DNA of 64,000 nt, from the NCBI GenBank assembly GCA_913040915.1, contig CAJWHW010000006.1:13727-77726 (forward strand). The letters are read 5' to 3'. Position numbers and translations under genes: made by a program. Source of the stretch: an uncultured Fidelibacterota bacterium. GTDB taxonomy: Bacteria > Fidelibacterota > Marinisomatia > Marinisomatales > UBA1611. Shown piece after piece: positions 15,301 to 58,833 of the stretch (positions are counted from its first letter, which is position 1; the number at the start of each line of letters is the position of its first letter). The notes under the pieces are model-generated. The model did not search any database. It worked only from the letters and a program-made list of their open reading frames with translations, and had not been told where the DNA came from.

Positions 15301-15660
15301 ATGACTAATAAAAACGAAGGCCATCCCCATCAGCTGTGGGAAAAGTTCTTAAAAAGTAGTCTAGATAGTTTCTATAACTATGAAATTATTGAGTTTCTGT
15401 TTACCATTGGTACTCAAAAAAAGACCATAAGCAATTTGGACCAATAAAGACTGCCTTGGAAGCATCCCTTGCAGATTTTTAAACATTCGACTCAATGGAG
15501 ATAACATTTTATTTGGGTTTAAGATAAACCAAGTCAGGATGATATGGCTATAACTAAAAAATTGAAAGAAGGAACTCAATCAATAGACATATCAATACAT
15601 GGTTATTTAATCATTATAGGAAATGATGGTTATTCATTTGTAGAACACTGATTGATTTAG
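15301..15660 (+). pseudogene. radC: RadC (JAB-domain) pseudogene with internal deletion
   Basis: MTNKNEGHPHQLWEKFLKSSLDSFYNYEIIEFLFTIGT matches the RadC N-terminus; DISIHGYLIIIGNDGYSFVEH*LI* matches the C-terminus; stops and frameshifts between; only 360 nt. Confidence 0.8.
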
Positions 15661-15724: not shown

Positions 15725-17938
15725 ATGTCCTTATTTAATAGAGCAGAAGTCGTTGATTTAAACTTTACTTCTCATGTAAAGTCAGGCAACTTTCCTCCAG
15801 AAAAGACACATTTAAGTTTATCTCAGACTGATATAAGACCATCCCAATTAATTTCCATTTTTGAATCTCAGGTGTTAAGTCGCCACATGGATTTAAAAGC
15901 TCGGCTTTTAAAAGAAGAAGGGAAATGTTTTTATACAATCGGCTGTTCGGGGCATGAAGGGAATGCTGTATTTGGCCAAGTATTCCCCTATACAGATATG
16001 GCTTTTCTTCATTACCGTTCCGGTCCTTTATTCATTGAACGGTCTAAACAAATTAGCAGATCCACTCCAATTTATGATATGGCTTTATCTTTCATGGCAT
16101 CTTCTGAAGACCCTATCAGCGGAGGTCGTCACAAAGTCATTGGCAGCAAAGAGCTAAATATTCCACCACAGACCAGTACAATTTCTAGCCATTTACCGAA
16201 AGCTGTGGGAACTGCCTTTTCCATCGACCGTGCTAAAGATCTAGACATTCAGGAGAGAATCCTCAAAGAGAATAGTATTGTGATCTGTAGTTTTGGAGAT
16301 GCCAGCGTTAACCATGCAACTGCTTTAAGTGCTTTTAACACTGTAAGTTGGGTTACTGCTCATGGTGGTCATGTGCCCATTATTTTTATCTGTGAAGATA
16401 ACGGTACCGGTATTTCTGTTCCTACGGATAAAAAATGGGTCGAACAAAATTTTAAGAACTGCCAGGGGATCGCTTACATTCAAACTGACGGTCTTCACCT
16501 TATTGATCTAATTATGAAATCCCGACAAGCAGATCATGATTGCCGTATCAATCGATCGCCTATTTTTATCCATATGAAAACCGTTCGGCTCATGGGGCAT
16601 GCAGGATCTGATGTTGAATTAGGGTACCGATCTATTGCTGATATTGAAAGGGATGAATTTAATGACCCTTTGCTCCATTCATCACGCATTCTAATAGAAA
16701 ATAAATGTTTATCTGGTGGTGAAATTTTATCTCTCTATGAGTCATCGAGAGAACAGGTAAACCATGTTTTTGATTCAGTTACCCAAAGGCCCAAATTAGA
16801 TAATGCTAAAAGTGTAATGGCCACTATCACTGCAAATAAATTCAGTCGATCTTTACCATTTCATTCCAGAAATAAGGAACGCAAAGCTCTTTTTGGGAAA
16901 GAGTTCAAAAGATTAGATCAGGCTCAGCATATGGCCAAGCTTATTAACTATGCACTGTCTGATATTATGTTGCGCTATAAGAATACCTTGGTATTCGGTG
17001 AAGATGTAGCCCAGAAAGGCGGTGTATATCATGTAACCGCTGATCTTTATAAACAGTTTGGAGTTCGTCGTGTATTTAACAGTCCCTTGGATGAAACATC
17101 AATTATCGGTTTCGGTATCGGTTTCAGTCATAATGGGTTTATTCCGATACCGGAAATTCAATTTTTGGCCTATCTACATAATGCAGAAGATCAACTTCGG
17201 GGTGAAGCAGCTACATTACCCTTTTTCTCAGAAGGACGTTTTACAAATCCCATGGTATTACGTGTTCCGGGTCTTGCTTATCAAAAAGGTTTTGGTGGCC
17301 ATTACCATAACGATAATTCTTTAACTATATTTCGTGATATTCCTGGAATCATTCTGGCTGTGCCATCCAATGGGGCCGATGCTGTAAAAATGCTTCGGAC
17401 TGCCGTAAAGGAAGCCTACAAGAATGGACGTGTAGTTGTTTTTATAGAACCCATTGCACTCTATATGACCAAAGACCTCTACAAACCAAAAGATAGGAGA
17501 TGGAGTTTTCAATATCCGGATCTAAAAGATGAGATTCCTGTTGGAGAATTCGTCAGTTATGGAAATGGGAAAATACTCACCATTATCACATACGGAAATG
17601 GTTTATACCTATCGCTAAAAGCTCAAAAGGAGATTGAGAAACAATTAAACAAAAAGATCAAAGTAATCGATCTGAGATGGCTCTCAGATATTGATATTCC
17701 TAATTTGCTAAAAGCTATAGGCACTAGTGAAAATGTACTGATCGTAGATGAATGTCGTCGAACTGGCTGCCATGGAGAAGGCTTGGTAACTCAGTTGGTT
17801 ACTGCAGCAAATAAACCACTAAATATTCAACTCCACGCAGCTGAAGATAGTTTTATTCCACTGGGTATTGCCGCAACTGCCACACTCCCCAGTAAACAGT
17901 CTATCATTGATAAGGCTCTGGAGTTAGTGAATGTTTAA
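15725..17938 (+). CDS. Fused alpha/beta E1-type ThDP-dependent 2-oxoacid dehydrogenase
   Basis: YTIGCSGHEG, ThDP motif GDAS...EDN, RLMGHAGSD, beta-part FGEDV and PEIQF; no lipoyl domain. Confidence 0.9.
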   Translation: MSLFNRAEVVDLNFTSHVKSGNFPPEKTHLSLSQTDIRPSQLISIFESQVLSRHMDLKARLLKEEGKCFYTIGCSGHEGNAVFGQVFPYTDMAFLHYRSGPLFIERSKQISRSTPIYDMALSFMASSEDPISGGRHKVIGSKELNIPPQTSTISSHLPKAVGTAFSIDRAKDLDIQERILKENSIVICSFGDASVNHATALSAFNTVSWVTAHGGHVPIIFICEDNGTGISVPTDKKWVEQNFKNCQGIAYIQTDGLHLIDLIMKSRQADHDCRINRSPIFIHMKTVRLMGHAGSDVELGYRSIADIERDEFNDPLLHSSRILIENKCLSGGEILSLYESSREQVNHVFDSVTQRPKLDNAKSVMATITANKFSRSLPFHSRNKERKALFGKEFKRLDQAQHMAKLINYALSDIMLRYKNTLVFGEDVAQKGGVYHVTADLYKQFGVRRVFNSPLDETSIIGFGIGFSHNGFIPIPEIQFLAYLHNAEDQLRGEAATLPFFSEGRFTNPMVLRVPGLAYQKGFGGHYHNDNSLTIFRDIPGIILAVPSNGADAVKMLRTAVKEAYKNGRVVVFIEPIALYMTKDLYKPKDRRWSFQYPDLKDEIPVGEFVSYGNGKILTIITYGNGLYLSLKAQKEIEKQLNKKIKVIDLRWLSDIDIPNLLKAIGTSENVLIVDECRRTGCHGEGLVTQLVTAANKPLNIQLHAAEDSFIPLGIAATATLPSKQSIIDKALELVNV

Positions 17939-18947
17939 ACAACGAATCGTTGTCGTTTGTCCGGGTAGGGGAACCTATACTCGGGAAACAATCGGTTACC
18001 TTAAAACCTATGGGAAATCTGCAAAAGATCAGATTAACTGGATAGATGGGCAGCGAGAATCCACAGATCTCCTAACACTTACCGATTTGGATAATCAACC
18101 ATTCAAGACCAAGATTCATATGGCAGGAGAACATGCTTCTCCACTGATCTATGCGTGTAGTTTATCAGATTTTCTGTCTATTGATCAAAGCAAATTTGAA
18201 ATTGTAGCCATAACAGGAAATTCCATGGGTTGGTATATTGCACTAGCTTTGTGCGGTGCTGTGTCTTACAAAAATGCTTATCACCTTATTCAAACTATGG
18301 GTTCTATGATGATAGATGGTATTATTGGTGGACAAATCATTTATCCAATTATGGATGAACATTTTCATTTAGATCCGGAAAAAAGTTCAATAGCAATGGC
18401 AGAAATAGAAAAAGCCGGTGCTTATGTATCTATTTATCTTGGTGGGTATCTGGTTATTGGGGGTGATCAAAAAGTATTGGATATACTATTGAAAAAACTT
18501 CCGCAGGAAGACAAATATCCTTTTCAACTTCCATACCATGGTGCTTTTCACACACCTTTAATGAAAAATATTTCGGCAAAGGGTCTCGCTACTCTTGAAC
18601 CATCTTTATTTCAAAAACCGGTGATTCCAATGGTGGACGGGAGGGGATATATTTGGTCACCTTATTCTACGGACATATTTGAGTTACATCAATATACCCT
18701 TGGTCATCAAGTAACAAAATCTTATGATTTTTCTTCAGCTATCATGATAGCTATGAAAGAATTTTGTCCGGATAAACTGGTTTTATTGGGTCCTGGAAAT
18801 ACGTTGGGTGGTGTCGTGGCACAAATTATGATCCAAAATAAATGGCAGGATATAGATTCAAAATTTGTATTTAGGAAAAAACAAAAAAAAGATCCTTATC
18901 TCATATCTATGGGAATAGAAGAACAAAGAAAACTGATATGCACATAG
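17931..18947 (+). CDS. FabD-like acyltransferase
   Basis: CPGRG (cf. FPGQG), nucleophile motif GNSMG, GAFHTPLM; overlaps the E1 stop codon. Confidence 0.8.
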   Translation: MFKQRIVVVCPGRGTYTRETIGYLKTYGKSAKDQINWIDGQRESTDLLTLTDLDNQPFKTKIHMAGEHASPLIYACSLSDFLSIDQSKFEIVAITGNSMGWYIALALCGAVSYKNAYHLIQTMGSMMIDGIIGGQIIYPIMDEHFHLDPEKSSIAMAEIEKAGAYVSIYLGGYLVIGGDQKVLDILLKKLPQEDKYPFQLPYHGAFHTPLMKNISAKGLATLEPSLFQKPVIPMVDGRGYIWSPYSTDIFELHQYTLGHQVTKSYDFSSAIMIAMKEFCPDKLVLLGPGNTLGGVVAQIMIQNKWQDIDSKFVFRKKQKKDPYLISMGIEEQRKLICT

Positions 18948-20065
18948 ATAGGAAAGTTGAGATTCTTGATTCAACACTTCGAGAAGGAGAGCAGACACCT
19001 GGAGTATCCTTTTCCGTTGATCAAAAAATAGCATTGGCTAAACGATTGGATGCTTTCGGGGTAGATTTTATTGAGATGGGACACCCGGCTGTTTCTCCAG
19101 ATGTTTATGAAAGTGTAGAAGCATTAAATGATCTGAGTCTCTGTGCTAATAAAGTTGCTCATGGTAGGGCGGCAAAATCAGATATCAACGATGCTTTGGC
19201 CATTGGAGTAGAATGGATAGGGATATTTTTTGGCACATCAGCCATCAGTTTGAAACATAAATTCAATGTGGATCGGCCAACGGCCCTACGGCGAATCAGA
19301 GAAGCAGTGACATACGGGAAAGATAAAGGATTAAAACTTCGTTTTACGGCAGAAGATGCCAGTCGTACTGACATCGATTTTCTAATACAAGTGGCGCAGT
19401 TGGTCCAATCCTGCGGAGCAGACCGATTCAGTCTAGCAGATACAGTTGGCTGTCTAACTCCGACAAAAACATATAAACTTGTGAAGAGTGTAAAATCGGA
19501 ATTGGATATTCCCATTCACGTTCATTGCCATAATGATTTAGGATTAGCCACAGCAAATACCTTATCTGCTTTGGAAGCTGGAGCCCAATGTGTGGATGTG
19601 GCAGTAAATGGTCTGGGTGAGCGCTGCGGATTAGCGCCTTTGGCAGAAGTGGTGACAGTCTTAGTGAATATTTATAAAGTGAATAGACAATGGGAATTAT
19701 GTTTAATCCCTGAATTAACGGAACTGGTTACAGAATTTTCCCAATTGGATGCAGGAGATAATCAACCGGTTACAGGCAAGAATGCATTTTCCCATAAGGC
19801 CGGGCTCCATGTAAAAGCGGTGGTTAAAGACCCCAGATCCTATGAAGCTATTTCGCCCGAATCTATCAATCGCACACGCAAGCTGGTTATAGACAAATAC
19901 ACAGGACGGGATGCCATCAAATATAAATTTGAATCTCTCAGTATAGTTCTAGATGAGAAGGATTTGGCTGCTGTTTTACAATGTATCAAAACCAAACCTG
20001 AAAAATTGAATTGGACGGATGTTGAACTTATTTCTCATGCTAAATCATTAGGGATTAAGGTGTAA
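18938..20065 (+). CDS. Homocitrate synthase-like DRE-TIM metallolyase (no LeuA regulatory domain)
   Basis: DSTLREGEQ, HCHNDLG, NGLGERCG, HKAGLH; 375 aa. Confidence 0.8.
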   Translation: MHIDRKVEILDSTLREGEQTPGVSFSVDQKIALAKRLDAFGVDFIEMGHPAVSPDVYESVEALNDLSLCANKVAHGRAAKSDINDALAIGVEWIGIFFGTSAISLKHKFNVDRPTALRRIREAVTYGKDKGLKLRFTAEDASRTDIDFLIQVAQLVQSCGADRFSLADTVGCLTPTKTYKLVKSVKSELDIPIHVHCHNDLGLATANTLSALEAGAQCVDVAVNGLGERCGLAPLAEVVTVLVNIYKVNRQWELCLIPELTELVTEFSQLDAGDNQPVTGKNAFSHKAGLHVKAVVKDPRSYEAISPESINRTRKLVIDKYTGRDAIKYKFESLSIVLDEKDLAAVLQCIKTKPEKLNWTDVELISHAKSLGIKV

Positions 20066-20093
20066 TTTCCAAACCAATTTTTATAGGAAAACT

Positions 20094-21266
20094 ATGAAGA
20101 AATATGGCCCTGATTATTACGATATAACTGATCTTCTGAGTGAAGAAGAATTGCTCATACAGCAAACGGCCTATGATTTCGTCCAGACGGAATTCATGCC
20201 GATCATAAGTAAACACTATGAAAAAGCCACTTTTCCCATGGAACTTGTACCTAAGTTAGGAGAACTTGGTTTTATGGGATCATCTTTGCCTGAAGAATCC
20301 GGTGGTGCAGGTGTAAGCAGTGTTGCCTATGGATTGATTCTCCATGAGTTAGAACGAGGGGATTCGGGTCTTCGCTCATTTGCCAGTGTACAGGGAGCAT
20401 TGGTTATGTATCCCATACATGCCTATGGTTCTGATGAACAAAAAGCTAAATGGCTTCCTGCATTGGGTTCTGGTGAAAAGATCGGCTGTTTCGGACTAAC
20501 AGAACCGAACTTTGGATCTAACCCCGGGGGTATGGCTACCAAAGCTATAAGGGAAGGAGATGAATGGATTATTAGCGGAAATAAAATGTGGATCACGAAT
20601 GGTTCATTAGCTGATGTTGCAGTGGTATGGGCCAAAGATGAAGAAGGTATTGTTCGGGGCTTTTTATTAGAAAAGGGAATAGACGGGTTTTCTGCACCGG
20701 TGCAGCATGGAAAATTGAGCCTTAGAGCTTCAGTTACATCGGAGCTTGTTATGGAAAATGTCCGGGTCCCTGATTCATCACGACTACCCAATATAGAAGG
20801 GTTGAAGGGCCCCTTGAGTTGTCTGACCCAGGCACGTTATGGTATCTCCTGGGGAATGGTGGGTGCTGCTACAGACTGCTATAATACAGCATTGGATTAT
20901 TCTAAAGATAGGAAACAATTTTCCAAGCCCATTGCAGGATATCAGCTTACACAAGCAAAGCTTGCGGATATGGTTACCTTAATCACTGAAGCACAGTTAT
21001 TGGTTTATCGTTTAGGAAGACTCAAAGATGAAGGTACTATGACTTTTCAGCAGGTATCTATGGCAAAGCGGAATAACTGTTCCATGGCCCGTGATATTGC
21101 AAAAACGTCTAGGGAAATTTTAGGCGCAAATGGTATTACAGAAGACTATTCACCTATTAGGCACATGGCCAATATTGAATCAGTGTTCACTTATGAAGGA
21201 ACACATGAGATGCACACTCTGATCTTAGGACAGGATGTAACTGGCTTTGCCGCTTATGATTCATAG
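20094..21266 (+). CDS. gcdH: Glutaryl-CoA dehydrogenase-type acyl-CoA dehydrogenase
   Basis: ELERGDSGLRS, GCFGLTEP, KMWITNG, GKLSLRASVT, TYEGT. Confidence 0.85.
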   Translation: MKKYGPDYYDITDLLSEEELLIQQTAYDFVQTEFMPIISKHYEKATFPMELVPKLGELGFMGSSLPEESGGAGVSSVAYGLILHELERGDSGLRSFASVQGALVMYPIHAYGSDEQKAKWLPALGSGEKIGCFGLTEPNFGSNPGGMATKAIREGDEWIISGNKMWITNGSLADVAVVWAKDEEGIVRGFLLEKGIDGFSAPVQHGKLSLRASVTSELVMENVRVPDSSRLPNIEGLKGPLSCLTQARYGISWGMVGAATDCYNTALDYSKDRKQFSKPIAGYQLTQAKLADMVTLITEAQLLVYRLGRLKDEGTMTFQQVSMAKRNNCSMARDIAKTSREILGANGITEDYSPIRHMANIESVFTYEGTHEMHTLILGQDVTGFAAYDS

Positions 21267-21300: not shown

Positions 21301-22470
21301 ATGTTTTTTATCATTGCTCTATTAATATTGTGGACTATACATGGCTATGTTGCATACAAGGTAATACCAACAATTGGTTTATCTTATTATCAATCCATAT
21401 TTGCTTACATTTTAACATTTTTTCTTAGTTTATTACCCATAGTTCCAATTATACTAAGAATTAGCGGTAATGAAGCAAAATTGATAGATAAATTATCTCT
21501 TGTGGGTTATACAAGCTTAGGTTTCTTTACATTATCATTTTTGACATTTTTAGTTAAAGATATATTCGTTCAATTACTCTCTTTCTCCAGTGGATTATTT
21601 TACGATGATGAAATTATTGATGATAATAAAAGGGATTTTCTAAAGAAATCCTTATCTATTGGCTTACTTGGGATCACGGGTTCAGCAACAGCTTATGGAT
21701 TTTCAAACGCAAGGATTGGACCCAGCATTATCAAACAGGATATTTATATAGAATCGTTACCAATGGAATTTGAAGACTTCAAGATAGCACAAATTTCAGA
21801 TCTCCATATTGGACCGACAATAAAGAGACCATATGTTGAAAATGTATTGGATAAGATCAGTCAAGTTAATCCAGATCTTATTGCCGTGACAGGTGATCTG
21901 GTTGATGGTTCAGTTAAATATCTTCATTCAGATGTGCAACCCCTAAAGGATATGATCGCAGATTATGGAACTTATTTTGTGACAGGGAATCATGAGTATT
22001 ACAGTGGCGTTGATCAGTGGTTAGATGAAACTGACAAAATAGGTATGATAAATCTTGTAAATGAAAATAAAATAATTACAAAGAATAAAATGAAAATTGT
22101 CATCGCAGGAATCACGGATTACAAGGCACATCAGATCAAACCGGAACACAAATCAAACCCAAAAAAAGCTCTTGGAAATGCACCTAAAAATCTGACTAGG
22201 ATTATGCTGGCTCATCAGCCCAACAGTATCCATGCTGTTCATGAGCTAGGTGTAGATCTTCAGTTATCGGGTCATACTCACGGAGGCCAGTTCTGGCCGT
22301 TTACTTATCCTACAAAGCTAGCGAATGCTTACCTTGCAGGGCACTATAACCATTTTGGGACACAGATTTATGTAAATCGTGGTACAGGTTATTGGGGACC
22401 ACCCTTACGGTTAGGTGTTTCAGCCGAGATTAGTCTTTTTCGATTAAAGAAAAAAATAATTTTAACATAG
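21301..22470 (+). CDS. Membrane-anchored calcineurin-like metallophosphoesterase (YkuE-like)
   Basis: Three N-terminal TM segments, then KRDFLK; SDLH, GDLVD, GNHE, AHQP, GHTHGGQ. Confidence 0.9.
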   Translation: MFFIIALLILWTIHGYVAYKVIPTIGLSYYQSIFAYILTFFLSLLPIVPIILRISGNEAKLIDKLSLVGYTSLGFFTLSFLTFLVKDIFVQLLSFSSGLFYDDEIIDDNKRDFLKKSLSIGLLGITGSATAYGFSNARIGPSIIKQDIYIESLPMEFEDFKIAQISDLHIGPTIKRPYVENVLDKISQVNPDLIAVTGDLVDGSVKYLHSDVQPLKDMIADYGTYFVTGNHEYYSGVDQWLDETDKIGMINLVNENKIITKNKMKIVIAGITDYKAHQIKPEHKSNPKKALGNAPKNLTRIMLAHQPNSIHAVHELGVDLQLSGHTHGGQFWPFTYPTKLANAYLAGHYNHFGTQIYVNRGTGYWGPPLRLGVSAEISLFRLKKKIILT

Positions 22471-23684: not shown

Positions 23685-25547
23685 TCAAGGGACATAGTCC
23701 TCTAAATACTTTAGCATTTTTGTCTGTTTTTTTAGCCATCCCAACCGAGTCTCCAATAATATGTAACGTATATCATGGCGAAGGGCTGCCCATGATAGAG
23801 AGCCATCATCTATTGGTTTCCATTTTTCCTGAAGCACAACATTATATGGTGACTTTGCCAGTATTTTGAAATCATTCGCGTTAGTGCAAAGGAAAAAATC
23901 TCTGGGGTTTTGATCTTCCTTAATTGATATAGAATCACTATTATCAATTTCTTTATGTACGTTGTAACCTCTAAAATTATTATGTATGGCCACAATCACA
24001 CCTCCATTTTGAGGAAAAATCTCTTCTAAAAATTCATTCCTTTCCTGATTGATATTAGTCAAAATTTCCTTTTTTTTAGTATTGGACCAATGGATGTTAT
24101 ATTTATTAATGTTGTCCAATGTTCCATCTGATGAAAATATACGATTAGGATCAATAAGACCGCCATGATAACTTATTTCTCGATCATCATTTTGGATGAA
24201 ATAAGCTGTCCCAGAACTATTTTTCATATGTGCATCTAGTGCCATATAAGCTGTTTTTTCATCACCATGGAACCAAATATATTTTCTGTCTCTATTGCCA
24301 TTCTTCACTATATCAAACTTTATTCCTCCAATTTCAACTATCTTTTTTATTTGTTTTTCTATTTCTAGCATTTCATCTATATGCTGGATTACTTCACGTA
24401 ATGTAATTTTTGTTGCTTTGTTTGCAACATCCCAATCCACAAGTCCGCCGATATGAATATGCCCGGCAGCAACACAATCCATCCCGAGTGAATCCAAAAA
24501 TGTTTTATACCACACACCTTGATACCCAAGAATTTCAGATAAGTAGCCCATTGAGCTTTCATGATAATCCACATATGAATTGAGACCTAGTTCTGCCTCA
24601 TTAATGGATTTTACGATACGGCCTGTTGGTAGAGAAGAATAAAGTATTTTCTCATCATATAAATAGTTTTCTGATATATTTCCAATTGTATCATCTATCC
24701 AAAGAAAACGATTTGAATTATGCCATTCAAGCTCCCAACTGTAGTCTATATATCCTCTACTAAATGTAATAATTGCTACTGGATTCAGTAACTCTACACT
24801 GTCCCAAAAATTTTCAAAAGTCTTTTCAATATCTATTTCAAAAGCTCCTTTTCCTTTTCCACAATTTCCACAATCCTTTGGATCAAACTCTGGAAAATAG
24901 GAATAAATATCATAACCTCGATTTTCCCAATTTTCTCCAATCCAACCATCTGGATTAGTTAAGAGGCTTTTACTGAATGGACGTATTGCTTCATTAGAAG
25001 GAGGCCAATAACCACATAACAAAATATTTTTACTATGAATAGATTTTTCAAGGTCGTTTTTTGGTTTATCTAATACCATAGTTGAAGGGTATACAGAAGA
25101 GATTAGCTCTTTAAAGGGAAAAATTGGTTTGGTGCCAGACGGTACAGAAATTTCTATGAGAATTGATTGACTCTTTATTTGTCCAGTTACATTTGAATGA
25201 TGATGTTGCATAATATTTTTTGTATAAGGTCCAACCCACCCACCTGTATTTAAATTAACTATATAGATAGAAGTACTATCGGTTAGGGCTGAATCAATAA
25301 TCTTAAAATGAATGGACTTTTCATCATCTAATGATATTATTAAATGATAGATTTCTTTATTATTGTGTTCTGTTGGTTCTAAAAACTGAATCAAATCACT
25401 TGGGAAAGAGGAAGGCACATCCATTTTAAGTTGATGAATTTCATCACTTAATTTCATTTTCAAATAAATTGGTTCACCATATGGTATTTCTTGTCCCCAA
25501 ATTTTTAAGCTAAATATCAAAAAAAGTATCAATTCGCGTTTCAGCAT
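23685..25547 (-). CDS. Exported multidomain protein: pyroglutamyl-peptidase(C15)-like domain plus C-terminal HGDE hydrolase-like domain
   Basis: Signal peptide; ILLCGYWPP, WELE, GYLSE, AAGHIHIG; later WFHGDE, DPNRIF, AIHNN. Confidence 0.5.
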   Translation of the reverse strand: MLKRELILFLIFSLKIWGQEIPYGEPIYLKMKLSDEIHQLKMDVPSSFPSDLIQFLEPTEHNNKEIYHLIISLDDEKSIHFKIIDSALTDSTSIYIVNLNTGGWVGPYTKNIMQHHHSNVTGQIKSQSILIEISVPSGTKPIFPFKELISSVYPSTMVLDKPKNDLEKSIHSKNILLCGYWPPSNEAIRPFSKSLLTNPDGWIGENWENRGYDIYSYFPEFDPKDCGNCGKGKGAFEIDIEKTFENFWDSVELLNPVAIITFSRGYIDYSWELEWHNSNRFLWIDDTIGNISENYLYDEKILYSSLPTGRIVKSINEAELGLNSYVDYHESSMGYLSEILGYQGVWYKTFLDSLGMDCVAAGHIHIGGLVDWDVANKATKITLREVIQHIDEMLEIEKQIKKIVEIGGIKFDIVKNGNRDRKYIWFHGDEKTAYMALDAHMKNSSGTAYFIQNDDREISYHGGLIDPNRIFSSDGTLDNINKYNIHWSNTKKKEILTNINQERNEFLEEIFPQNGGVIVAIHNNFRGYNVHKEIDNSDSISIKEDQNPRDFFLCTNANDFKILAKSPYNVVLQEKWKPIDDGSLSWAALRHDIRYILLETRLGWLKKQTKMLKYLEDYVP

Positions 25548-25552
25548 AAATT

Positions 25553-26323
25553 CTAATCTAGAATAATGTTAGGGAAAAATTGATCATTTCCATCAAGTTC
25601 AATACAGGCATGCCCTTTAAGATTTACTTTTTTAAACTGCCCTTTTAGTGAATTCCCATTATGCATAAAAGAGACAGTTTGATTAAGGTGCCCACAATAG
25701 TTTATCCAATTTTCTATAATTTCATTAGAATTTTGCAGTATTTTTTCCCAGCACTGTTCAAAAAAAGTTGTATAAATTGCGCATACTAATTCACGTTGGT
25801 GCACATTTCCTGTGACAATATTAAGAGATGTTGCTGTATTAACTAATTCACTAGGGAAATCTGTTTTAATTTCATTGATATTTAACCCGAGACCTATAAC
25901 TATAGCTTGGACTTGTTGTCCCGAAAGTCTAGTCTCACATAGAATACCGCCTACTTTTTTTTGTTGAAATAAAATATCATTGGGCCATTTCAGATTCGGA
26001 GAAGAACCGCGGTTTTCCAATGTTCTTGCAACAGCCACTCCCGCAGCCAGAGGCACAAGACTCGCATTTTCAATTGTGATTGAATCCATAAGAATAAGGG
26101 ACATGGCCAATCCTTTACTTGGACTCATAAACCATGAATTTGTGCCACGACCCTTGCCTTTAAATTGATGATCTGTTATAACCATCATCCCATGTGTAGC
26201 TTCGCCAGAATCAATTAATTTCCAGGCTTCGTCATTTGTAGACCCCAGTCGATTATAATACTCAATCTGTTTTCCAAAGAGGTGTGTACGTAAGTTGGTT
26301 TGAATCAGGTTTGTAAAGATCAT
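25553..26323 (-). CDS. birA: Biotin--[acetyl-CoA-carboxylase] ligase (no HTH)
   Basis: STND, Q.KGKGRG..W, KWPND, KVGGILCE, GLGLN. Confidence 0.93.
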   Translation of the reverse strand: MIFTNLIQTNLRTHLFGKQIEYYNRLGSTNDEAWKLIDSGEATHGMMVITDHQFKGKGRGTNSWFMSPSKGLAMSLILMDSITIENASLVPLAAGVAVARTLENRGSSPNLKWPNDILFQQKKVGGILCETRLSGQQVQAIVIGLGLNINEIKTDFPSELVNTATSLNIVTGNVHQRELVCAIYTTFFEQCWEKILQNSNEIIENWINYCGHLNQTVSFMHNGNSLKGQFKKVNLKGHACIELDGNDQFFPNIILD

Positions 26324-26904
26324 GTCTCTAAAAATAGGTAGGTTAATTCAGTATAGGCTAATCCAATAGACAAAACTATGCCTGTTATCACTTGGGTAGG
26401 CGTGTGAGCTTTTAATATTATGCGAGAAATACAAACCAATATCATGGATACGCTCATTATGACTGGTTCTTGAATTCCAAAAATCCATAGAGCAACAAGA
26501 GGCCCACCAAGTCCAATAGCATGAATTGAAATTTTCCAATACCGAGTAATAAGCCATACAATTGCAGTATTTAATGCATAACAGAACATAAGTCCTTGAA
26601 CCAAAATCGGTGCCTGAAGATATTTTAATAGAAAAAATCCAAAACTATAATAAATGGTACCATATACTAATGGTTGAACCCGTTGCTCACGGATAGATGC
26701 ATCAAAATCTGAAATTTCCCCTTCTTTTTTTAAAAATAATACTGTAGCAATAGTTAGAAGTGTAGTGAATAGGAAAGAAATAAAAAAGATTAGATGTGGA
26801 TTCGAATTATTATCGCTGCCGTAAACTAATACTCCAAATGTAAATGTTGCTACTACCATTGGATGAAAAAGAATTGAAAAAAAATTAGCTAGTTTTAACA
26901 GCAT
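26320..26904 (-). CDS. Integral membrane protein (PAP2-like)
   Basis: Multiple TM helices; WKISIH and SRI.LKAHT motifs. Confidence 0.65.
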   Translation of the reverse strand: MLLKLANFFSILFHPMVVATFTFGVLVYGSDNNSNPHLIFFISFLFTTLLTIATVLFLKKEGEISDFDASIREQRVQPLVYGTIYYSFGFFLLKYLQAPILVQGLMFCYALNTAIVWLITRYWKISIHAIGLGGPLVALWIFGIQEPVIMSVSMILVCISRIILKAHTPTQVITGIVLSIGLAYTELTYLFLET

Positions 26905-38754: not shown

Positions 38755-39525
38755 ATGAAAATTGCTGTATTAGTAAAGCAAGTTCCAAGCTCAGAATCTG
38801 CTTTAACCATTTCTGATGATCAAAGCTGGATTGATGAAAATCAAGTTACCTATGCTATGAATCATCCAGATAACTTTGCTATTGAAGAAGCGTTATTGAT
38901 CAAAGAAAGAATCGGTGATGGAGAAGTAGTAGTCGTCAGTCTTGGGCCAGATCGAACCCGAAAGGTAATCCGTGAAGGACTCGCAAAAGGAGCTGATAGG
39001 GGAATTCATTTGCAGGAACATAGTCCTATTGAAACAGACCCTTTATCCATTGCGAAAAGCTTTGCATCTGTACTGGATGATGAAAATTTTGATCTTATTT
39101 TGACAGGTTTACAATCTGATGATACTGGGATGGGGCAAACAGGTGTTTTATTAGGGGAAATGCTTGGAATGTCAACCGCAACTTTAGCAATTGAAACTGA
39201 TATTCAAAAGGGATCAATCCGTATTAAAAGAGAATTAGAGTCCGGGTGGTTTCAGTGGATTAAATTGCTTCTGCCTGCATCAATCAGTATTCAGTCTGGT
39301 TTAAATACTCCGCGTTATCCTTCTTTGAAAGGCATTATGGGTGCAAAAAAGAAAGAATTAAAAATTGTAGCTCCAGAAGATCACCAAGTTGACTCCAAAA
39401 CTCAAACGATTGACAAAATATTTGTTCCGAAAACGACCAAGAAGACCGTAGTGATAGAAGGGGATGCAGATACTTCTGTCACACGTATTGTTGAAATTTT
39501 AAAATCAGATTTAAAGGTTTTGTAA
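38755..39525 (+). CDS. etfB: Electron transfer flavoprotein beta subunit
   Basis: VKQVP, AIEEAL, GADRG, G.QS.D...GQTG, NTPRYPSL. Confidence 0.93.
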   Translation: MKIAVLVKQVPSSESALTISDDQSWIDENQVTYAMNHPDNFAIEEALLIKERIGDGEVVVVSLGPDRTRKVIREGLAKGADRGIHLQEHSPIETDPLSIAKSFASVLDDENFDLILTGLQSDDTGMGQTGVLLGEMLGMSTATLAIETDIQKGSIRIKRELESGWFQWIKLLLPASISIQSGLNTPRYPSLKGIMGAKKKELKIVAPEDHQVDSKTQTIDKIFVPKTTKKTVVIEGDADTSVTRIVEILKSDLKVL

Positions 39526-39528
39526 AGA

Positions 39529-40467
39529 ATGGATATTTTAGTTGTACTTGAAGATAACCATGGCTCACTACATCGAATGAGTAAAGAGGCAGTCTCAGGC
39601 GCTCAGCAAATGGATGGTACAGTAACGGCTCTTGCCATCGGGGCCAATGCAGAATCTTTAGCAAATGAACTAAATCATATAGGTTTTTCAGAAATAATTA
39701 TTATCAATCATGATCTGGTCTCATCTTATAATGCGGATGGTTATGCGGAAGTTGTAAAGCAGGTAGTTGAAGCTGAAGAACCAAGATTTATTGTTGCAGG
39801 ACATACTTACCAAACTCGTGATTTTATGCCTCGTGTCAGTGCAAAATTAGACATACCATTTATTCCTGATGTTATTTCCATCAATGATGGTTATGTAAAA
39901 CAAGTTTTGAATGCAAAATTTAATGCAGTCTGCTTTTTTTCTGCTCAACAAGCGATTATAAGTTTTCAATCTGCTGCATTTAACGAAGATGATATTTTTT
40001 CTGGGGCTGGCGCATCACGGATTTTTAATGTTAATTTAGATTCATCTGTTATTCAAGTAGAATCAGAAGAGCCATTTCAAGAAGCGGCAGGAGATGTAGA
40101 CATCGATGCCGCAGAATGGCTTGTTTCCATTGGTCGTGGAATTGAGGATGAAGAGAATGTACAAATGGCCTTTGATTTGGCGTTAGCTCTTGGGGCTGAA
40201 GTTGTTGCAAGCCGTCCAGTAGTAGATTCCGGGTGGGTTGATGGATTTAGGCAAGTTGGAAGCTCAGGACTCAATGTAGCACCAAAACTTTATTTTTCCC
40301 TTGGTGTTTCCGGTGCAATACAGCATGTTGTGGGGATGAAAGGTTCAAAAAGTATCATTGCAATTAACAAGGATCCGGAAGCACCTATTTTTGAAATAGC
40401 GGATTATGCCGTTGTTGGTGATCTTTTGGAAATTGTACCTAAACTGATTGAGGTATTAAAAGGATAA
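39529..40467 (+). CDS. etfA: Electron transfer flavoprotein alpha subunit
   Basis: [37 protein letters not shown]. Confidence 0.94.
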
Positions 40468-40476
40468 TCAAAAATC

Positions 40477-42324
40477 TTGATGGATAACATTACCTTTTCT
40501 GTTCCCGAAAAATTAATTCTTGCAGCATTAACCCTTGGAGCACTGAGTTCATTTTGCTATGAGGTGAACCGCCGAATTATTATCATTCGAAAAGGGATTG
40601 GCTCTCTACCATTTGATCGAATTCCTGAAAGGCTTTTTCGTGTTTTTAAAGAAGTTTTTCTCCATGAAAAAGTAATACGTGAACGGCCTTTTCCCGGATT
40701 CATGCATGCTCTGGTTTTTTGGGGATTTCTTGTATTTGGTCTGGTTACTTTAGATCATTTCGCTATTGGTTTTCATAAACCTATTCTATCTGAGTCCGCA
40801 CACCATAATTACTCATTGATTGTTATACCATTTTCCATATTAGTGATTTTTGGGATTATTTCGTTGGCTTACCGACGTTTTATAACACGACCAAAATCAT
40901 TAGGAGATTTATCTCCAACTTCAGGTTTGGTGACAGTATTTATTGTGATCTTAATGTTAACCTATTTATTGGGTGAAATGGGAATTTCTTCTACTCTATG
41001 GAAAATAAATTGGTGGATTCACAGTGTTGTGATTCTTGCTTTTTTGATATTAATTCCTCGAAGTAAACACCTACACCTGGTTTTAGCGCCATTCAATATT
41101 TTCTTCAGGCCATTTACGCAGCCGGAGCACACGCCAGTGCATATCGATTTAGAGGGAGATGAAGATGAATTAGATTCTATGCTCACGAGCCTAAACAAAT
41201 TAACTCAAAATCAGGCATTAGATATTTTTTCCTGTGTGGAGTGTGGACGTTGTACAGATGTTTGTCCTGCGAATAGAGGTGGGGGTATTTTGGATCCAAA
41301 ACATCATTTTATAATGGATCTTCGTGCGCCTCTTCTTGAAGAAAAGGATGTGACTGTTTTGGATCGTGTAAACATTGAAGCAGGATGGGAGTGCACAACC
41401 TGCCAAGCATGTACGGAAGTTTGTCCTGTTGGTAACCATGTTGAAAAATCTGATGAGATCAGGCGCTTAGAAGTTTTAGTAGAAGGACGAGTCCCACAAG
41501 AATATCAAAAATTATTTACCAATCTTCAGGAAACAGGCAATACGGAAGGTGCGTCTTCCAGCGCATTTGCAGATTCATTTCCCACTTATACATCAGATAA
41601 AGATTATGTATTATGGCTTGGATGTTTTGCCCGTCATGGATTGGATCCAAATTTTAATGAATCGGTAGAAAATTTCACAAAAATTCTTGATGTTGCAGGT
41701 GTGACTTATGGTGTTCTGGCCGAGGAACATTGTAGCGGTGATCCTGCTAACCGGTTAGGGGATAAACTTACCTACACGATGCTTCGAGAACATAATCTAG
41801 AACAACTTTCAGAAACGAAAAAAGTAGTAACTCTCTGTCCACATTGTGCAGTTAATCTTGGTAAAGAATATTCAAATTATGGAGAAGTAAATTACACAGT
41901 TGAACATCACACCCAAGTGATTGGTAGATTAATTGATGAAGGGAAGATCAAAGTCCAAATGGGTGAAAACGGAAAGGTTACTTATCATGATCCCTGTAAC
42001 CTTTCAAGAATGTTAGATATTGTTGATGAACCACGAACTGCTATTCAGGCTGTATCATCAGATTATCAGGAAATGGAGGAATATGGCCGCAATACATTAT
42101 GCTGCGGTGCAGGTGGTGCTTTATGGTGGAAAAAAGAAACTCAAGGTCGTACACATCTTGTAAGAGCAGAGCAGGTGATAGAATCAAAAGCTGATACTGT
42201 TGTTACCGGCTGCAATTTTTGTTATGGTATGATGAAACAGGGCTTAGGACCCATGATGCCTGAAGGTCGCGATGAAGTCCAGGTAAAAGATGTAGCTGAT
42301 ATTGTAGCAGACAATCTAATATAG
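40477..42324 (+). CDS. Membrane Fe-S oxidoreductase (FadF/EMO-type ETF:quinone oxidoreductase)
   Basis: TM domain with His residues, SKHLH; CVECGRC..CP and CTTCQAC..CP; two CCG domains (YHDPC, CCGAGG). Confidence 0.85.
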   Translation: MMDNITFSVPEKLILAALTLGALSSFCYEVNRRIIIIRKGIGSLPFDRIPERLFRVFKEVFLHEKVIRERPFPGFMHALVFWGFLVFGLVTLDHFAIGFHKPILSESAHHNYSLIVIPFSILVIFGIISLAYRRFITRPKSLGDLSPTSGLVTVFIVILMLTYLLGEMGISSTLWKINWWIHSVVILAFLILIPRSKHLHLVLAPFNIFFRPFTQPEHTPVHIDLEGDEDELDSMLTSLNKLTQNQALDIFSCVECGRCTDVCPANRGGGILDPKHHFIMDLRAPLLEEKDVTVLDRVNIEAGWECTTCQACTEVCPVGNHVEKSDEIRRLEVLVEGRVPQEYQKLFTNLQETGNTEGASSSAFADSFPTYTSDKDYVLWLGCFARHGLDPNFNESVENFTKILDVAGVTYGVLAEEHCSGDPANRLGDKLTYTMLREHNLEQLSETKKVVTLCPHCAVNLGKEYSNYGEVNYTVEHHTQVIGRLIDEGKIKVQMGENGKVTYHDPCNLSRMLDIVDEPRTAIQAVSSDYQEMEEYGRNTLCCGAGGALWWKKETQGRTHLVRAEQVIESKADTVVTGCNFCYGMMKQGLGPMMPEGRDEVQVKDVADIVADNLI

Positions 42325-55980: not shown

Positions 55981-57822
55981 ATGGGAAAAACATTTAAAAC
56001 AATCGATGAGGCCGTTATAAGATTTGCTGGTGACTCTGGAGATGGTATGCAGCTTACTGGTGGGCGTTTTACTGAGACTACTGCTATTGTAGGAAACGAC
56101 CTGAGCACATTACCTGATTTTCCAGCAGAGATTCGTGCTCCTGCTGGCTCTTTAGCCGGTGTTAGTGCATTCCAAATCAAATTCTCATCGAAAGATATCC
56201 ATACACCGGGGGATAAACCGGATGTTTTGGTAGCCATGAATCCTGCAGCTTTAAAAGTCCACCAAAAAGACTTAATTCCAGGTGGTACAATGATTGTAAA
56301 TACGGATGCATTTACAAAGAAAAATTTAAATTTTGCAGGATATGAGTCTAACCCAATCGATGATGGCTCTCTAGACGATTATTTTACAGTTATTCCAATA
56401 GAGATGAATAAAATGGTGACAGCTGCATGTGAAGGATTGGACATGTCGCCAAAACTGGTTGGGAGGACCAAAAACTTTTTTGCTCTAGGTGTTTTATATT
56501 ATATGTATGATCGTCCTTTGGAAGCTACGGAGGAATGGCTCAAGAAGAAATTTTCCGGTAAGGATGCGATCATTGAAGCCAATACTCGCGCTATGAATGC
56601 GGGCTACAACTATGCTGATACAACTGAGCTTTTCATGACTCGTTATAAGGTAGAAAAAGCTGTGCTTCCTCCAGGGAAATACCGCAATATAAATGGGAAT
56701 TTAGCCACATCTTTAGGGCTATTAGCCGCTTCCGAAAAATCTGGTTTGAATTTATTTTATGGTGGATACCCAATTACCCCTGCGAGTGATATTTTGCATA
56801 CGCTTGCAGCATGGAAACATTTTGGTGTGCAAACATTTCAAGCTGAAGATGAAATTGCGGGAGTTGCTTCCGTTGTGGGTGCTTCCTTTACAGGAAATTT
56901 AGCAGTTACAGCTACTTCTGGCCCTGGCATTGCCCTCAAGGGTGAAGCTCTGGGCTTGGCAGTGATAACGGAATTGCCTATGGTAGTAATCAATGTCCAA
57001 CGAGGGGGACCTAGTACAGGTTTACCAACTAAGACAGAACAATCTGATTTAAACCAAGCACTATATGGAAGGAATGGTGAAGCTCCCTTGCCGGTAATTG
57101 CAGCGGCAACACCCGGGGATTGCTTTTATGCTGCATATGAGGCCTGCCAGATTGCACTGAAATATATGACACCGGTTATGCTTTTAACTGATGGCTATTT
57201 AGCCAATGGCTCAGAGCCTTGGATGATCCCTGAAATGGATGAACTAAAGGACATCCAAATCAATTTTGCTGATTCTAAAAATGGAGAAGATGAATTTTTG
57301 CCTTACCTTAGAAATGAAGATACATTAGCTAGACCTTGGGCTGTCCCAGGGACGCCTGGCCTTGAACATCGTATAGGTGGAATTGAAAAAGCGGAAAATA
57401 CTGGTCATGTATCTTATGACCCTGAAAATCACCATAAAATGGTAGAAATAAGGCAGGCAAAAGTTGACAAGATTCGACAGGATATACAAAAAACAGAAGT
57501 ATTTGGCGAAGACCATGGTGATATGTTGATTTTGAGTTGGGGCGGCACTTATGGTGCCTGCCGATCAGCAGTTGAAACGCTTCAAGATGAAGGTTTGAAA
57601 GTCTCACATGTCCATCTGAGATGGATTAACCCGCTGCCGCAAGACCTGGGTGAAATCATTATTGGATTTCAAGATGTATTGGTTCCGGAAATAAATCTTG
57701 GGCAATTACTACGTTTAATCCGGTCAGAATATTTGGTCGATGCTCAAGGACTGAACCTTGTCAGAGGCCGACCTATTGGTGCTGCCACTATTGTTGAACA
57801 TGTTAAAAAATCATTGAGTTAA
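55981..57822 (+). CDS. korA: 2-oxoacid:ferredoxin oxidoreductase alpha subunit (gamma-alpha fusion)
   Basis: RFAGDSGDGMQ, YPITPAS, QAEDEIA, TSGPG, QRGGPSTGLPTK. Confidence 0.92.
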   Translation: MGKTFKTIDEAVIRFAGDSGDGMQLTGGRFTETTAIVGNDLSTLPDFPAEIRAPAGSLAGVSAFQIKFSSKDIHTPGDKPDVLVAMNPAALKVHQKDLIPGGTMIVNTDAFTKKNLNFAGYESNPIDDGSLDDYFTVIPIEMNKMVTAACEGLDMSPKLVGRTKNFFALGVLYYMYDRPLEATEEWLKKKFSGKDAIIEANTRAMNAGYNYADTTELFMTRYKVEKAVLPPGKYRNINGNLATSLGLLAASEKSGLNLFYGGYPITPASDILHTLAAWKHFGVQTFQAEDEIAGVASVVGASFTGNLAVTATSGPGIALKGEALGLAVITELPMVVINVQRGGPSTGLPTKTEQSDLNQALYGRNGEAPLPVIAAATPGDCFYAAYEACQIALKYMTPVMLLTDGYLANGSEPWMIPEMDELKDIQINFADSKNGEDEFLPYLRNEDTLARPWAVPGTPGLEHRIGGIEKAENTGHVSYDPENHHKMVEIRQAKVDKIRQDIQKTEVFGEDHGDMLILSWGGTYGACRSAVETLQDEGLKVSHVHLRWINPLPQDLGEIIIGFQDVLVPEINLGQLLRLIRSEYLVDAQGLNLVRGRPIGAATIVEHVKKSLS

Positions 57823-57825
57823 ACT

Positions 57826-58833
57826 ATGAGTGAAATACAAACCCCAACATTAACAAAAAAAGATTTCGAATCTGATCAAGCTGTAAGATGGTGTCCCGGA
57901 TGCGGTGATTATGCCATTTTAGCTCAGACGCAGAAGAATATGCCGACTTTTGGTCGGAACAAAGAAGAATTCGTATTTGTTTCTGGCATTGGTTGCTCGA
58001 GTCGTTTTCCCTATTATATGAATACATACGGATTTCATTCTATCCATGGTCGGGCACCTGCAGTAGCAACCGGCGTTAAAATTGCCAATCCAGATTTATC
58101 CGTTTGGATTGTCACTGGTGATGGTGATGGACTCTCTATTGGTGGAAATCATTTTATGCATGCGCTTCGCCGGAATATGGACGTCAATATTTTAATGTTT
58201 AATAACAGAATCTATGGTTTAACTAAAGGGCAATATTCACCTACATCCGAACATGGGAAAGTGACCAAAGCAACGCCATTTGGTTCAATTGATTTTCCAT
58301 TGAATCCCCCTTCATTGGCATTAGGTGCTCAAGCAACATTTGTGGCTAGGACCATCGACCGTTGGCAAAAGCATATGGCAGAAATGATGGAACGCTCCTA
58401 TCACCATGATGGAGGTTCCTTTATTGAGATTTATCAAAACTGTAATATCTTTAATGATGGTGCATTTGAAGAATATACAGGAAAAGAGAAGCTGGATAAT
58501 GTCATTGAATTAAAACATGGAGAACCGATGCTTTTCTCCAATGGTACAAAAGGGATCAAACTGGATGGTTCTTCTGCAACCGTTGTTGAAATGGAGAAAT
58601 ACAGTCTTGATGAAATCCTTGTCCACGATGAAACTAATTTAGATCTTGCTCATATCATTGCCAATTGGACAACTCATCCTATTTTACCTGAACCGATAGG
58701 AGTGATTTATTCTATTGATAAACCAACCTATAATCAGGAGATCATGGACCAGGTTGAACATGCCAAAAAAGTAAAAGGTGTAGGCAATGTTCAAGATCTA
58801 CTTAACGCAGGAGATACCTGGGTAGTAAAATAA
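57826..58833 (+). CDS. korB: 2-oxoacid:ferredoxin oxidoreductase beta subunit
   Basis: WCPGCGD, SGIGCS, HGRA, GDGD...[10 protein letters not shown]. Confidence 0.92.

Follow-up and report, generated by a model that had tools for sequence, protein, structure and literature searches.

Genes of the operon and their products

The 64,000-nt stretch of DNA analyzed here (the window) is part of contig CAJWHW010000006.1 of an uncultured Fidelibacterota bacterium (GCA_913040915.1), whose 1.86-Mb genome is 85% complete and has Marinimicrobia-type relatives. Four genes on its forward strand encode a fused 2-oxoacid dehydrogenase component (E1; 15725-17938, 737 amino acids [aa]), an acyltransferase (AT; 17931-18947, 338 aa), a protein of the homocitrate synthase family (HCS; 18938-20065, 375 aa) and a glutaryl-coenzyme A (CoA) dehydrogenase (GCDH; 20094-21266, 390 aa). 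As a preliminary description of this DNA had stated, the four genes are co-oriented, and the open reading frame (ORF) coordinates agree with its 8-nt E1/AT overlap, 10-nt AT/HCS overlap and 28-nt gap between HCS and GCDH. We propose that the E1 is the 2-oxoadipate-decarboxylating component and the AT the glutaryl transferase to CoA of a conserved system that supplies GCDH with its substrate.

The E1 combines the Pfam domains E1_dh (residues 48-358), Transket_pyr (402-574) and Transketolase_C (615-693), with nothing lipoyl, in line with the earlier description of a fused E1 without a lipoyl domain. It belongs to the heterotetramer-type family, with alpha and beta parts in one chain, and its nearest solved relatives are of the branched-chain 2-oxoacid dehydrogenase (BCKDH) and pyruvate dehydrogenase (PDH) types. 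Aligned to 1dtw_A, 1w85_B and 1um9_B, it shares their domain order, the motif for Mg and thiamine diphosphate (ThDP) and the activating Glu (PL-E). Both active-site histidines are likewise kept, aligning to 'GHHS' of BCKDH alpha and 'ELHSDS' of PDH beta; we take this pair to serve the reductive acylation of a lipoyl arm. Residues G191, D192, N226, H292, E457 and H528 are invariant across 42 members of the E1 family. Unlike the BCKDH and PDH enzymes, however, the window E1 is a single alpha-beta chain with no cognate E2 adjoining, and it failed every NCBIfam equivalog cut-off for PDH or BCKDH E1 (best score, 121.1 bits versus 454). A cognate E2 (lipoyl plus subunit-binding domains) was found neither beside it in the window nor among 81 neighbors of 15 distant loci. 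The canonical fused E1 of the same genome is 28% identical to it and differs in the two motifs that are invariant in the family of the window E1, GGRHKV and PPQTST. Pfam detected no flavin or Fe-S domain in the E1, and it has no redox domain of its own.

The AT had no Pfam match. Its structural model (pLDDT 95.2) retrieved FabD/MCAT chains in Foldseek with TM scores of 0.64 to 0.77 at 15-21% identity, and it has the fold, the GxSxG nucleophile elbow and the catalytic His of FabD (1mla, 3hjv) in the motifs PGRGTY, GNSMGW and AFHTP; Ser98 and His207 are invariant across the AT family. In contrast to FabD, it scored only 47.9 bits on the fabD model TIGR00128 (cut-off, 260.9) and has Met123 in place of FabD Arg117 and Arg13 in place of FabD Gln11, both invariant in the AT family. 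In FabD, the Arg binds the malonyl carboxylate, and the Gln is that of the GQGSQ motif. The true FabD (347 bits on TIGR00128) is encoded on contig C9, about 0.8 kb from the only ACP (acyl carrier protein) gene of the genome, so the housekeeping malonyl transferase is this protein rather than the AT. The AT constitutes a separate family that shares the FabD fold and is not FabD, which bears out the suspicion that the FabD-like protein is something other than an ordinary malonyl transferase.

GCDH contains three acyl-CoA dehydrogenase domains (Pfam) and scored 400 to 475 bits against solved glutaryl-CoA dehydrogenases, compared with 258 bits against acyl-CoA oxidase 4 and 225 bits or less against other acyl-CoA dehydrogenases. 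Further along the same strand, etfB (38755-39525; Pfam ETF), etfA (39529-40467; ETF_alpha) and a gene for a membrane Fe-S/CCG oxidoreductase (40477-42324; CCG and 4Fe-4S dicluster domains, partial matches to QmoC, HdrC/D and TfrB) were found where the preliminary description had placed etfBA and a third gene (38.7-42.3 kb). Unlinked to the operon as they are, these genes are the likely electron outlet for GCDH via electron transfer flavoprotein (ETF).

Conservation and replacement of the E1-AT pair

A search of one-genome-per-species contigs with an alignment of AT homologs gave at least 579 matching stretches, from which the best 80 loci were used for locus counts, and an AT profile matched 202 clusters of a representative library at E <= 1e-30. 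The E1 was directly upstream of the AT in 79 of the 80 loci (tblastn), the exception being a contig that starts inside the AT, and GCDH was present in 65. The hosts were Marinimicrobia-type, Bdellovibrionota, Oligoflexus, gammaproteobacterial and alphaproteobacterial genomes, and the position of GCDH varied among them: it follows the pair in Marinimicrobia-type genomes, precedes it on the same strand in gammaproteobacteria and is transcribed divergently in Bdellovibrionota. Clustering of 953 neighboring ORFs, a stricter method, left E1, AT, GCDH (60 loci) and a LysR regulator (26 loci) as the only groups shared by more than 18 loci. HCS was found in 10 of the 80 loci, every one of them Marinimicrobia-type. 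The conserved core is therefore E1-AT-GCDH and not the four-gene set, and the co-occurrence across phyla supports the view that these three genes belong together, as had been supposed.

Pfam annotation of the 81 neighbors in the 15 distant loci gave the arrangement LysR / GCDH-E1-AT in gammaproteobacteria. In Hoeflea, the AT adjoins a saccharopine-dehydrogenase-family gene; Aestuariirhabdus has a family III CoA-transferase close by, and one Bdellovibrionota locus includes CoA-transferase subunits. These neighbors comprised no E2, lipoyl or ACP protein. In nearly all loci E1 and AT overlap or abut; in one Fidelibacterota metagenome-assembled genome (MAG; locus L021) they lie 741 nt apart, and in a Bdellovibrionia MAG the AT gene (L050, 8001-9029) has one internal stop and is either a pseudogene or affected by a sequencing error.

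A fused E1-AT form exists as well, since one library protein (P0235, a 595-aa fragment) carries the C-terminal part of the E1 and the AT in one chain: residues 1-234 correspond to E1 residues 510-714, with a linker and then the AT behind them. A dedicated search for longer AT homologs, that is, fused forms, returned none at E <= 1e-30. An apparent 1,028-aa E1-AT frame at locus L095 was rejected as an artefact, the AT's own frame staying open upstream by its coordinates.

Additional evidence came from genomes in which the pair is replaced. Of 201 genomes sampled from the phylum, 10 have an ortholog of the window HCS (at least 65% identity), with absence judged at E <= 1e-90; related genomes are dependent samples, and the genome counts given here ignore kinship. 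The source genome, G186, G063 and G189 have the order E1-AT-HCS-GCDH. In G150, G160, G191 and G200, HCS-GCDH is instead accompanied by a divergently transcribed two-subunit 2-oxoacid:ferredoxin oxidoreductase in the E1-AT place, and no AT was found in these four genomes at E <= 1e-20. Of the remaining HCS genomes, one has a contig that ends just upstream of HCS-GCDH and the other has HCS alone on a 2.3-kb contig. As in the window, thyX is found within a few kilobases at two of the four loci with the oxidoreductase. Furthermore, G047 and G146 carry oxidoreductase//GCDH without HCS, and G188 and others carry E1-AT-GCDH without HCS; all four combinations (E1-AT or oxidoreductase, with or without HCS) thus occur.

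The oxidoreductase has an unrelated architecture and an Fe-S/ferredoxin electron path. However, it has the net reaction 2-oxoacid plus CoA to acyl-CoA plus CO2 and occupies the same thyX-...-HCS-GCDH locus in sister genomes. Because the oxidoreductase of the same locus makes acyl-CoA from a 2-oxoacid and CoA, E1-AT likely does so too; among the computational signs that the two proteins together perform this reaction, the locus swap is the strongest hint, by analogy. The window itself also encodes a KorAB-type 2-oxoacid:ferredoxin oxidoreductase (55981-58833; 613 and 335 aa) adjoining fumarase; this oxidoreductase shares only 30-35% identity with the one found in place of E1-AT in the sister genomes.

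Between thyX and the E1, a gap of 487 nt contains a degraded radC (15301-15657, forward strand), detected by tblastn with the intact RadC of G150. RadC residues 1-41 correspond to 15301-15423 and residues 182-224 to 15529-15657, the latter interrupted by a stop codon in frame. The remnant also has a frameshift and no longer contains the JAB core, and about 40 N-terminal and 43 C-terminal codons are left. In G150, an intact radC lies between thyX and the oxidoreductase. The remnant marks the older thyX-radC-X-HCS-GCDH arrangement. No intact radC was found elsewhere in the 85%-complete source genome with the G150 query.

Possible sources of 2-oxoadipate

The genome offers a route from lysine to the proposed substrate. 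Contig C19 encodes, side by side, an ornithine-type aminotransferase, an L-piperidine-6-carboxylate dehydrogenase (NF050084, 792.4 versus a cut-off of 730) and an L-lysine 6-transaminase (LAT; TIGR03251, 621.5 versus 520.8), and about 10 kb away a class I/II LysN-like aminotransferase sharing 49% identity with its counterpart in the LysW-type cluster of the related genome G059. With LAT, the dehydrogenase and the LysN-like aminotransferase on this contig, the conversion of lysine via 2-aminoadipate to 2-oxoadipate is encoded in the source genome. Within the route, only the step from 2-oxoadipate to glutaryl-CoA is without an assigned gene, and E1-AT is the sole candidate linked to GCDH.

The assignment of HCS, which contains the Pfam domains HMGL-like and HCS_D2 and lacks a regulatory domain, is narrower. 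It passed the homocitrate synthase model TIGR02146 by a small margin (417.2 versus 413.55), while its top NCBIfam model was an isopropylmalate synthase subfamily (438 bits, under the cut-off of 517). As a member of the same family as the aminoadipate-pathway homocitrate synthases, it scored best against the Sulfolobus enzyme (6ktq, 329 bits), followed by those of S. pombe (3ivs, 222 bits) and Thermus (2ztj, 221 bits). A His and the Arg of 'RF(S/T)xED' align with the S. pombe and Sulfolobus enzymes and may be among the residues for the distal carboxylate of 2-oxoglutarate. A reading as Re-citrate synthase was discarded as unnecessary, a normal citrate synthase being present in the source genome and in all five HCS-bearing relatives examined.

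HCS is an optional add-on of one Marinimicrobia subclade, inserted between AT and GCDH and tied to GCDH: the two are adjacent in all nine assessable genomes of the subclade that have the HCS ortholog, and HCS is absent from every non-Marinimicrobia locus in the 80-locus set. The linkage of HCS emphasized in the preliminary description thus holds within this subclade and fails as a general feature (10 of 80 loci). A search for lysW was negative in the source genome and in four of five relatives, and lysA is present in four of the five. As lysine is apparently made by the diaminopimelate route in the relatives, HCS is not obviously biosynthetic. The biosynthetic paralog in G059 is 56% identical and 468 aa long; unlike the window HCS, which lacks such a domain and lies in a catabolic operon, it has a RAM/AsnC-type regulatory domain and lies in a cluster with LysX/Y/Z/J/K, homoaconitase and homoisocitrate dehydrogenase (HICDH). 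That cluster, on contig C27 of G059 (L131, L106), is a complete LysW-type aminoadipate cluster comprising LysX, LysY, LysZ, LysJ, LysK, HCS, a fused homoaconitase, HICDH and an aminotransferase; LysW lies immediately before it, and the genome additionally has lysA.

HCS could feed a C6 shunt in which 2-oxoglutarate and acetyl-CoA would give homocitrate, borrowed LeuCD/LeuB or aconitase would carry homocitrate on to 2-oxoadipate, and E1-AT and GCDH would complete the path to crotonyl-CoA. Several observations are compatible with this idea: the membership of HCS in the homocitrate synthase family, its 10-nt overlap with the AT, its invariable adjacency to GCDH whichever decarboxylating enzyme is present, the lysA and lysW distribution (four and one of five relatives, respectively), and the co-occurrence of GCDH with homoaconitase-like, Iso_dh and PrpD-like genes in five other Marinimicrobia. 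However, the follow-up searches suggested in the preliminary description returned neither a dedicated homoaconitase, a homoisocitrate dehydrogenase nor lysW from the 85%-complete source genome, and G186, G063, G189, G150 and G160 likewise gave no dedicated enzyme for either of the two steps. Across these genomes, only AcnA and LeuC matched (28-35% identity), and in the source genome the Iso_dh query matched only LeuB; in G186, a single-contig genome, there was only an AcnA-like match. The five Marinimicrobia with homoaconitase-like operons lack an HCS ortholog, all four module combinations occur, and HCS is missing outside the Marinimicrobia. As the source genome and these five relatives gave no match for the enzymes that would lead from homocitrate to 2-oxoadipate, beyond AcnA, LeuC and LeuB, the C6 shunt is possible but unproven, and we regard it as doubtful.

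In those five genomes (G170, locus L136; G131, L137; G111, L138; G162, L141; G175, L144), GCDH ends an operon that encodes, in this order, a CitF-like CoA-transferase, an ORF of about 180 aa, a fused aconitase-like protein (656 aa), Iso_dh (398 aa) and a PrpD-like dehydratase (478 aa). No HCS ortholog was detected in them at E <= 1e-90. Judging from its gene content, this operon could encode an undescribed route from a tricarboxylate via 2-oxoadipate to a glutaryl product. A CitF-like gene of the source genome (contig C43) was also considered and dropped, as it lies at a contig edge among unrelated neighbors.

Proposed reaction, alternatives and known relatives

Taken together, conversion of 2-oxoadipate via glutaryl-CoA to crotonyl-CoA, which the preliminary description had already put forward, is the best reading of the operon, given the gene linkage, the LysR/gcdH operons, the saccharopine-dehydrogenase-family neighbor, the encoded lysine route and the oxidoreductase swap. 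We consider it reasonably probable that the operon encodes the last leg of lysine breakdown via 2-aminoadipate, with E1-AT acting on 2-oxoadipate. LAT, the piperideine-6-carboxylate dehydrogenase and the LysN-like aminotransferase of C19 would deliver 2-oxoadipate, which the fused E1 would decarboxylate on ThDP. The E1 would then glutarylate a carrier, and the AT would move the glutaryl group to CoA via a serine ester on Ser98; the sole E2 of the genome, or another lipoyl protein, probably lends its lipoyl arm as the carrier. E3 would re-oxidize the lipoyl arm, and GCDH would form crotonyl-CoA, with ETF and the Fe-S/CCG oxidoreductase receiving its electrons. In net terms, the system most likely works as a 2-oxoadipate dehydrogenase that relies on a previously undescribed partner.

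This scheme is favored because the E1 keeps the histidine pair and has no redox domain, because Ser98 and His207 of the AT are invariant, and because all 11 AT-bearing Marinimicrobia genomes tested encode at least one E2. The absence of E2, E3 and ACP genes claimed earlier holds for the window, where a Pfam scan of the 54 ORFs found no E2, E3 or lipoyl domain and the sole PP-binding (ACP) match of the genome lies outside, on C9; it does not hold for the genome. Contig C29 carries, in a row, E3, LipB, a second fused E1 (667 aa), an E2 (428 aa), an unassigned ORF and LipA, and GcvH is encoded on contig C13, so that the genome is not short of lipoyl machinery. A search of the genome for lipoyl carriers, which had been recommended, turned up this set, and together with the conserved histidines and the E2 in 11 of 11 genomes it argues against the E2 independence proposed at the outset. 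The alternative suggestion that the operon supplies a glutaryl or pimeloyl primer likewise fits poorly with GCDH, the LysR regulators and the catabolic neighbors.

Several points weigh against assigning the 2-oxoadipate step to E1-AT. LAT and GCDH occur in 108 and 104 of the 201 phylum genomes and the AT in 12, so most relatives must perform this step in another way. None of the 81 neighbors scanned in 15 loci is an E2, lipoyl or ACP protein, and a lipoyl arm, if used, would always be borrowed. Six loci with long flanks have no GCDH (L056, L061, L072, L081, L088 and L094). The substrate is deduced from the neighbors only, all members considered here being known from genes alone. Finally, if an ordinary E2 serves the E1, the AT would appear superfluous, and if none does, some other oxidant would be needed.

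This last dilemma underlies two of the competing explanations. In a system free of E2 and lipoyl groups, glutaryl-ThDP would form on the E1, another oxidant would act and the AT would take the acyl group straight to CoA or ACP. Such a scheme would account for the lack of E2, lipoyl and ACP genes at every locus examined, for the strict coupling of E1 and AT (79 of 80 loci, and the fused fragment P0235) and for the fact that an enzyme working without any E2, the oxidoreductase, stands in the place of the pair at one locus. We consider it improbable, however, given an E1 that retains both histidines aligned to lipoyl acylation, lacks flavin and Fe-S domains and occurs, in the Marinimicrobia genomes tested, always together with an E2. 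In E1 structures, moreover, the deep funnel that holds the ThDP site would hardly admit a protein serine. Conversely, the E1 might use the resident E2 and E3 of C29 in the normal manner, leaving the AT as a lipoyl deacylase or proofreader, a thioesterase, or a glutaryl-CoA:ACP transferase for biotin. Precedents are a mitochondrial lipoyl deglutarylase, ABHD11, and the flow of glutaryl-CoA from lysine catabolism into biotin in alphaproteobacteria, both as reported (PMC12643935 and PMC7645780, respectively), and FabD-fold acyl hydrolases also exist, one of them (PksD, 8avz) among the fold matches of the AT. Yet the swap with a direct acyl-CoA maker suggests that E1 and AT deliver acyl-CoA together, GCDH in the operon would destroy a biosynthetic primer, and ACP never adjoins in the loci examined; a separate role for the AT seems to us equally improbable.

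It is also conceivable that the E1 acts on a different 2-oxoacid, branched-chain or 2-oxoglutarate, and that the association with GCDH reflects a shared amino acid catabolism regulon. The BCKDH and PDH affinity of the E1 and the six loci without GCDH would agree with this. However, GCDH is the only enzyme co-conserved with the pair across phyla, a canonical fused E1-E2 set (C29) and the KorAB-type 2-oxoacid oxidoreductase of the window are already available, and the motifs GGRHKV and PPQTST set the family apart from the canonical paralog, which makes another substrate very unlikely. A more far-reaching form of the 2-oxoadipate reading, in which the FabD-fold AT would form the center of acyl transfer in a novel type of 2-oxoacid dehydrogenase system, a serine ester replacing the E2 catalytic domain on the way to CoA, and HCS would additionally feed the module from 2-oxoglutarate, appears unlikely to us, though it deserves more weight than the alternatives just discussed.

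The nearest precedent for an orphan E1 in the same pathway is DHTKD1. The animal 2-oxoadipate dehydrogenase complex, which acts upstream of GCDH, is reported to consist of DHTKD1 E1a with a borrowed DLST E2o and the DLD E3 (10.1101/2020.01.20.912931). It shares with the system proposed here the reaction from 2-oxoadipate to glutaryl-CoA, the pathway and an E1 that borrows parts of another complex. However, DHTKD1 is a homodimeric E1o-type enzyme that uses an E2o core, while the window E1 is a fused alpha-beta enzyme of the BCKDH/PDH type with a private FabD-fold AT. For a private transferase, the nearest precedent is actinobacterial OdhA, reported as a 'two-in-one' 2-oxoglutarate dehydrogenase that joins an E1 to an acyltransferase belonging to it and lacks an intrinsic lipoyl domain (PMC10415282). 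In OdhA, an E2-type catalytic domain is fused to an E1o, whereas the AT is a separate Ser-His protein of the FabD fold, fused to the E1 only in P0235. The lipoyl domain used by OdhA is borrowed from another complex.

In the papers that could be searched and read, we found no account of an E1 paired with a FabD-fold or FabD-like protein in any 2-oxoacid dehydrogenase system, and none that assigns a gene to the bacterial conversion of 2-oxoadipate to glutaryl-CoA in the lysine 6-transaminase/2-aminoadipate route. Passages of PMC9007349, PMC13759103 and PMC5653290 were likewise negative. What the window newly contributes is the HCS variant, the oxidoreductase swap, a full upstream lysine route in one genome and evidence against E2 independence.

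Elsewhere around the operon, a metallophosphoesterase gene (21301-22470; YaeI/LpxG-like, under the cut-offs) begins 34 nt past GCDH on the same strand, and a metallophosphoesterase also lies downstream of GCDH in the Marinimicrobia loci L022, L028, L039, L089 and L146. Two ORFs on the reverse strand, of 620 aa (23685-25547) and 194 aa (26320-26904), had no Pfam or NCBIfam match, the latter being flanked by birA and a methylmalonyl-CoA mutase gene. The BPL_LplA_LipB gene at 25553-26323 was considered as a lipoate ligase and proved to be BirA. Upstream of the E1, no Rfam family was detected, and promoter and terminator scans were at chance level. One marine metatranscriptome run, in which 6% of the sampled words were found, yielded six short contigs, two identical to parts of GCDH and the others partial matches; the run was uninformative on transcription of E1, AT or HCS.

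If the assignment is correct, the conserved E1-AT pair would fill the gene gap between 2-oxoadipate and glutaryl-CoA in bacteria, and a FabD-type fold with serine-ester chemistry would represent a second fold for the acyl-transfer step of 2-oxoacid dehydrogenase systems. As the pair is present in cultured Shewanella, Colwellia, Thalassotalea and Hoeflea, it is directly testable. The locus swap would show marine bacteria exchanging oxygen-tolerant and ferredoxin-linked solutions for one step, and HCS and homoaconitase-like genes beside GCDH hint at an unexplored 2-oxoadipate metabolism in Marinimicrobia. Should both the serine-ester AT route and the HCS feed be real, members of one Marinimicrobia subclade would burn 2-oxoglutarate to crotonyl-CoA.

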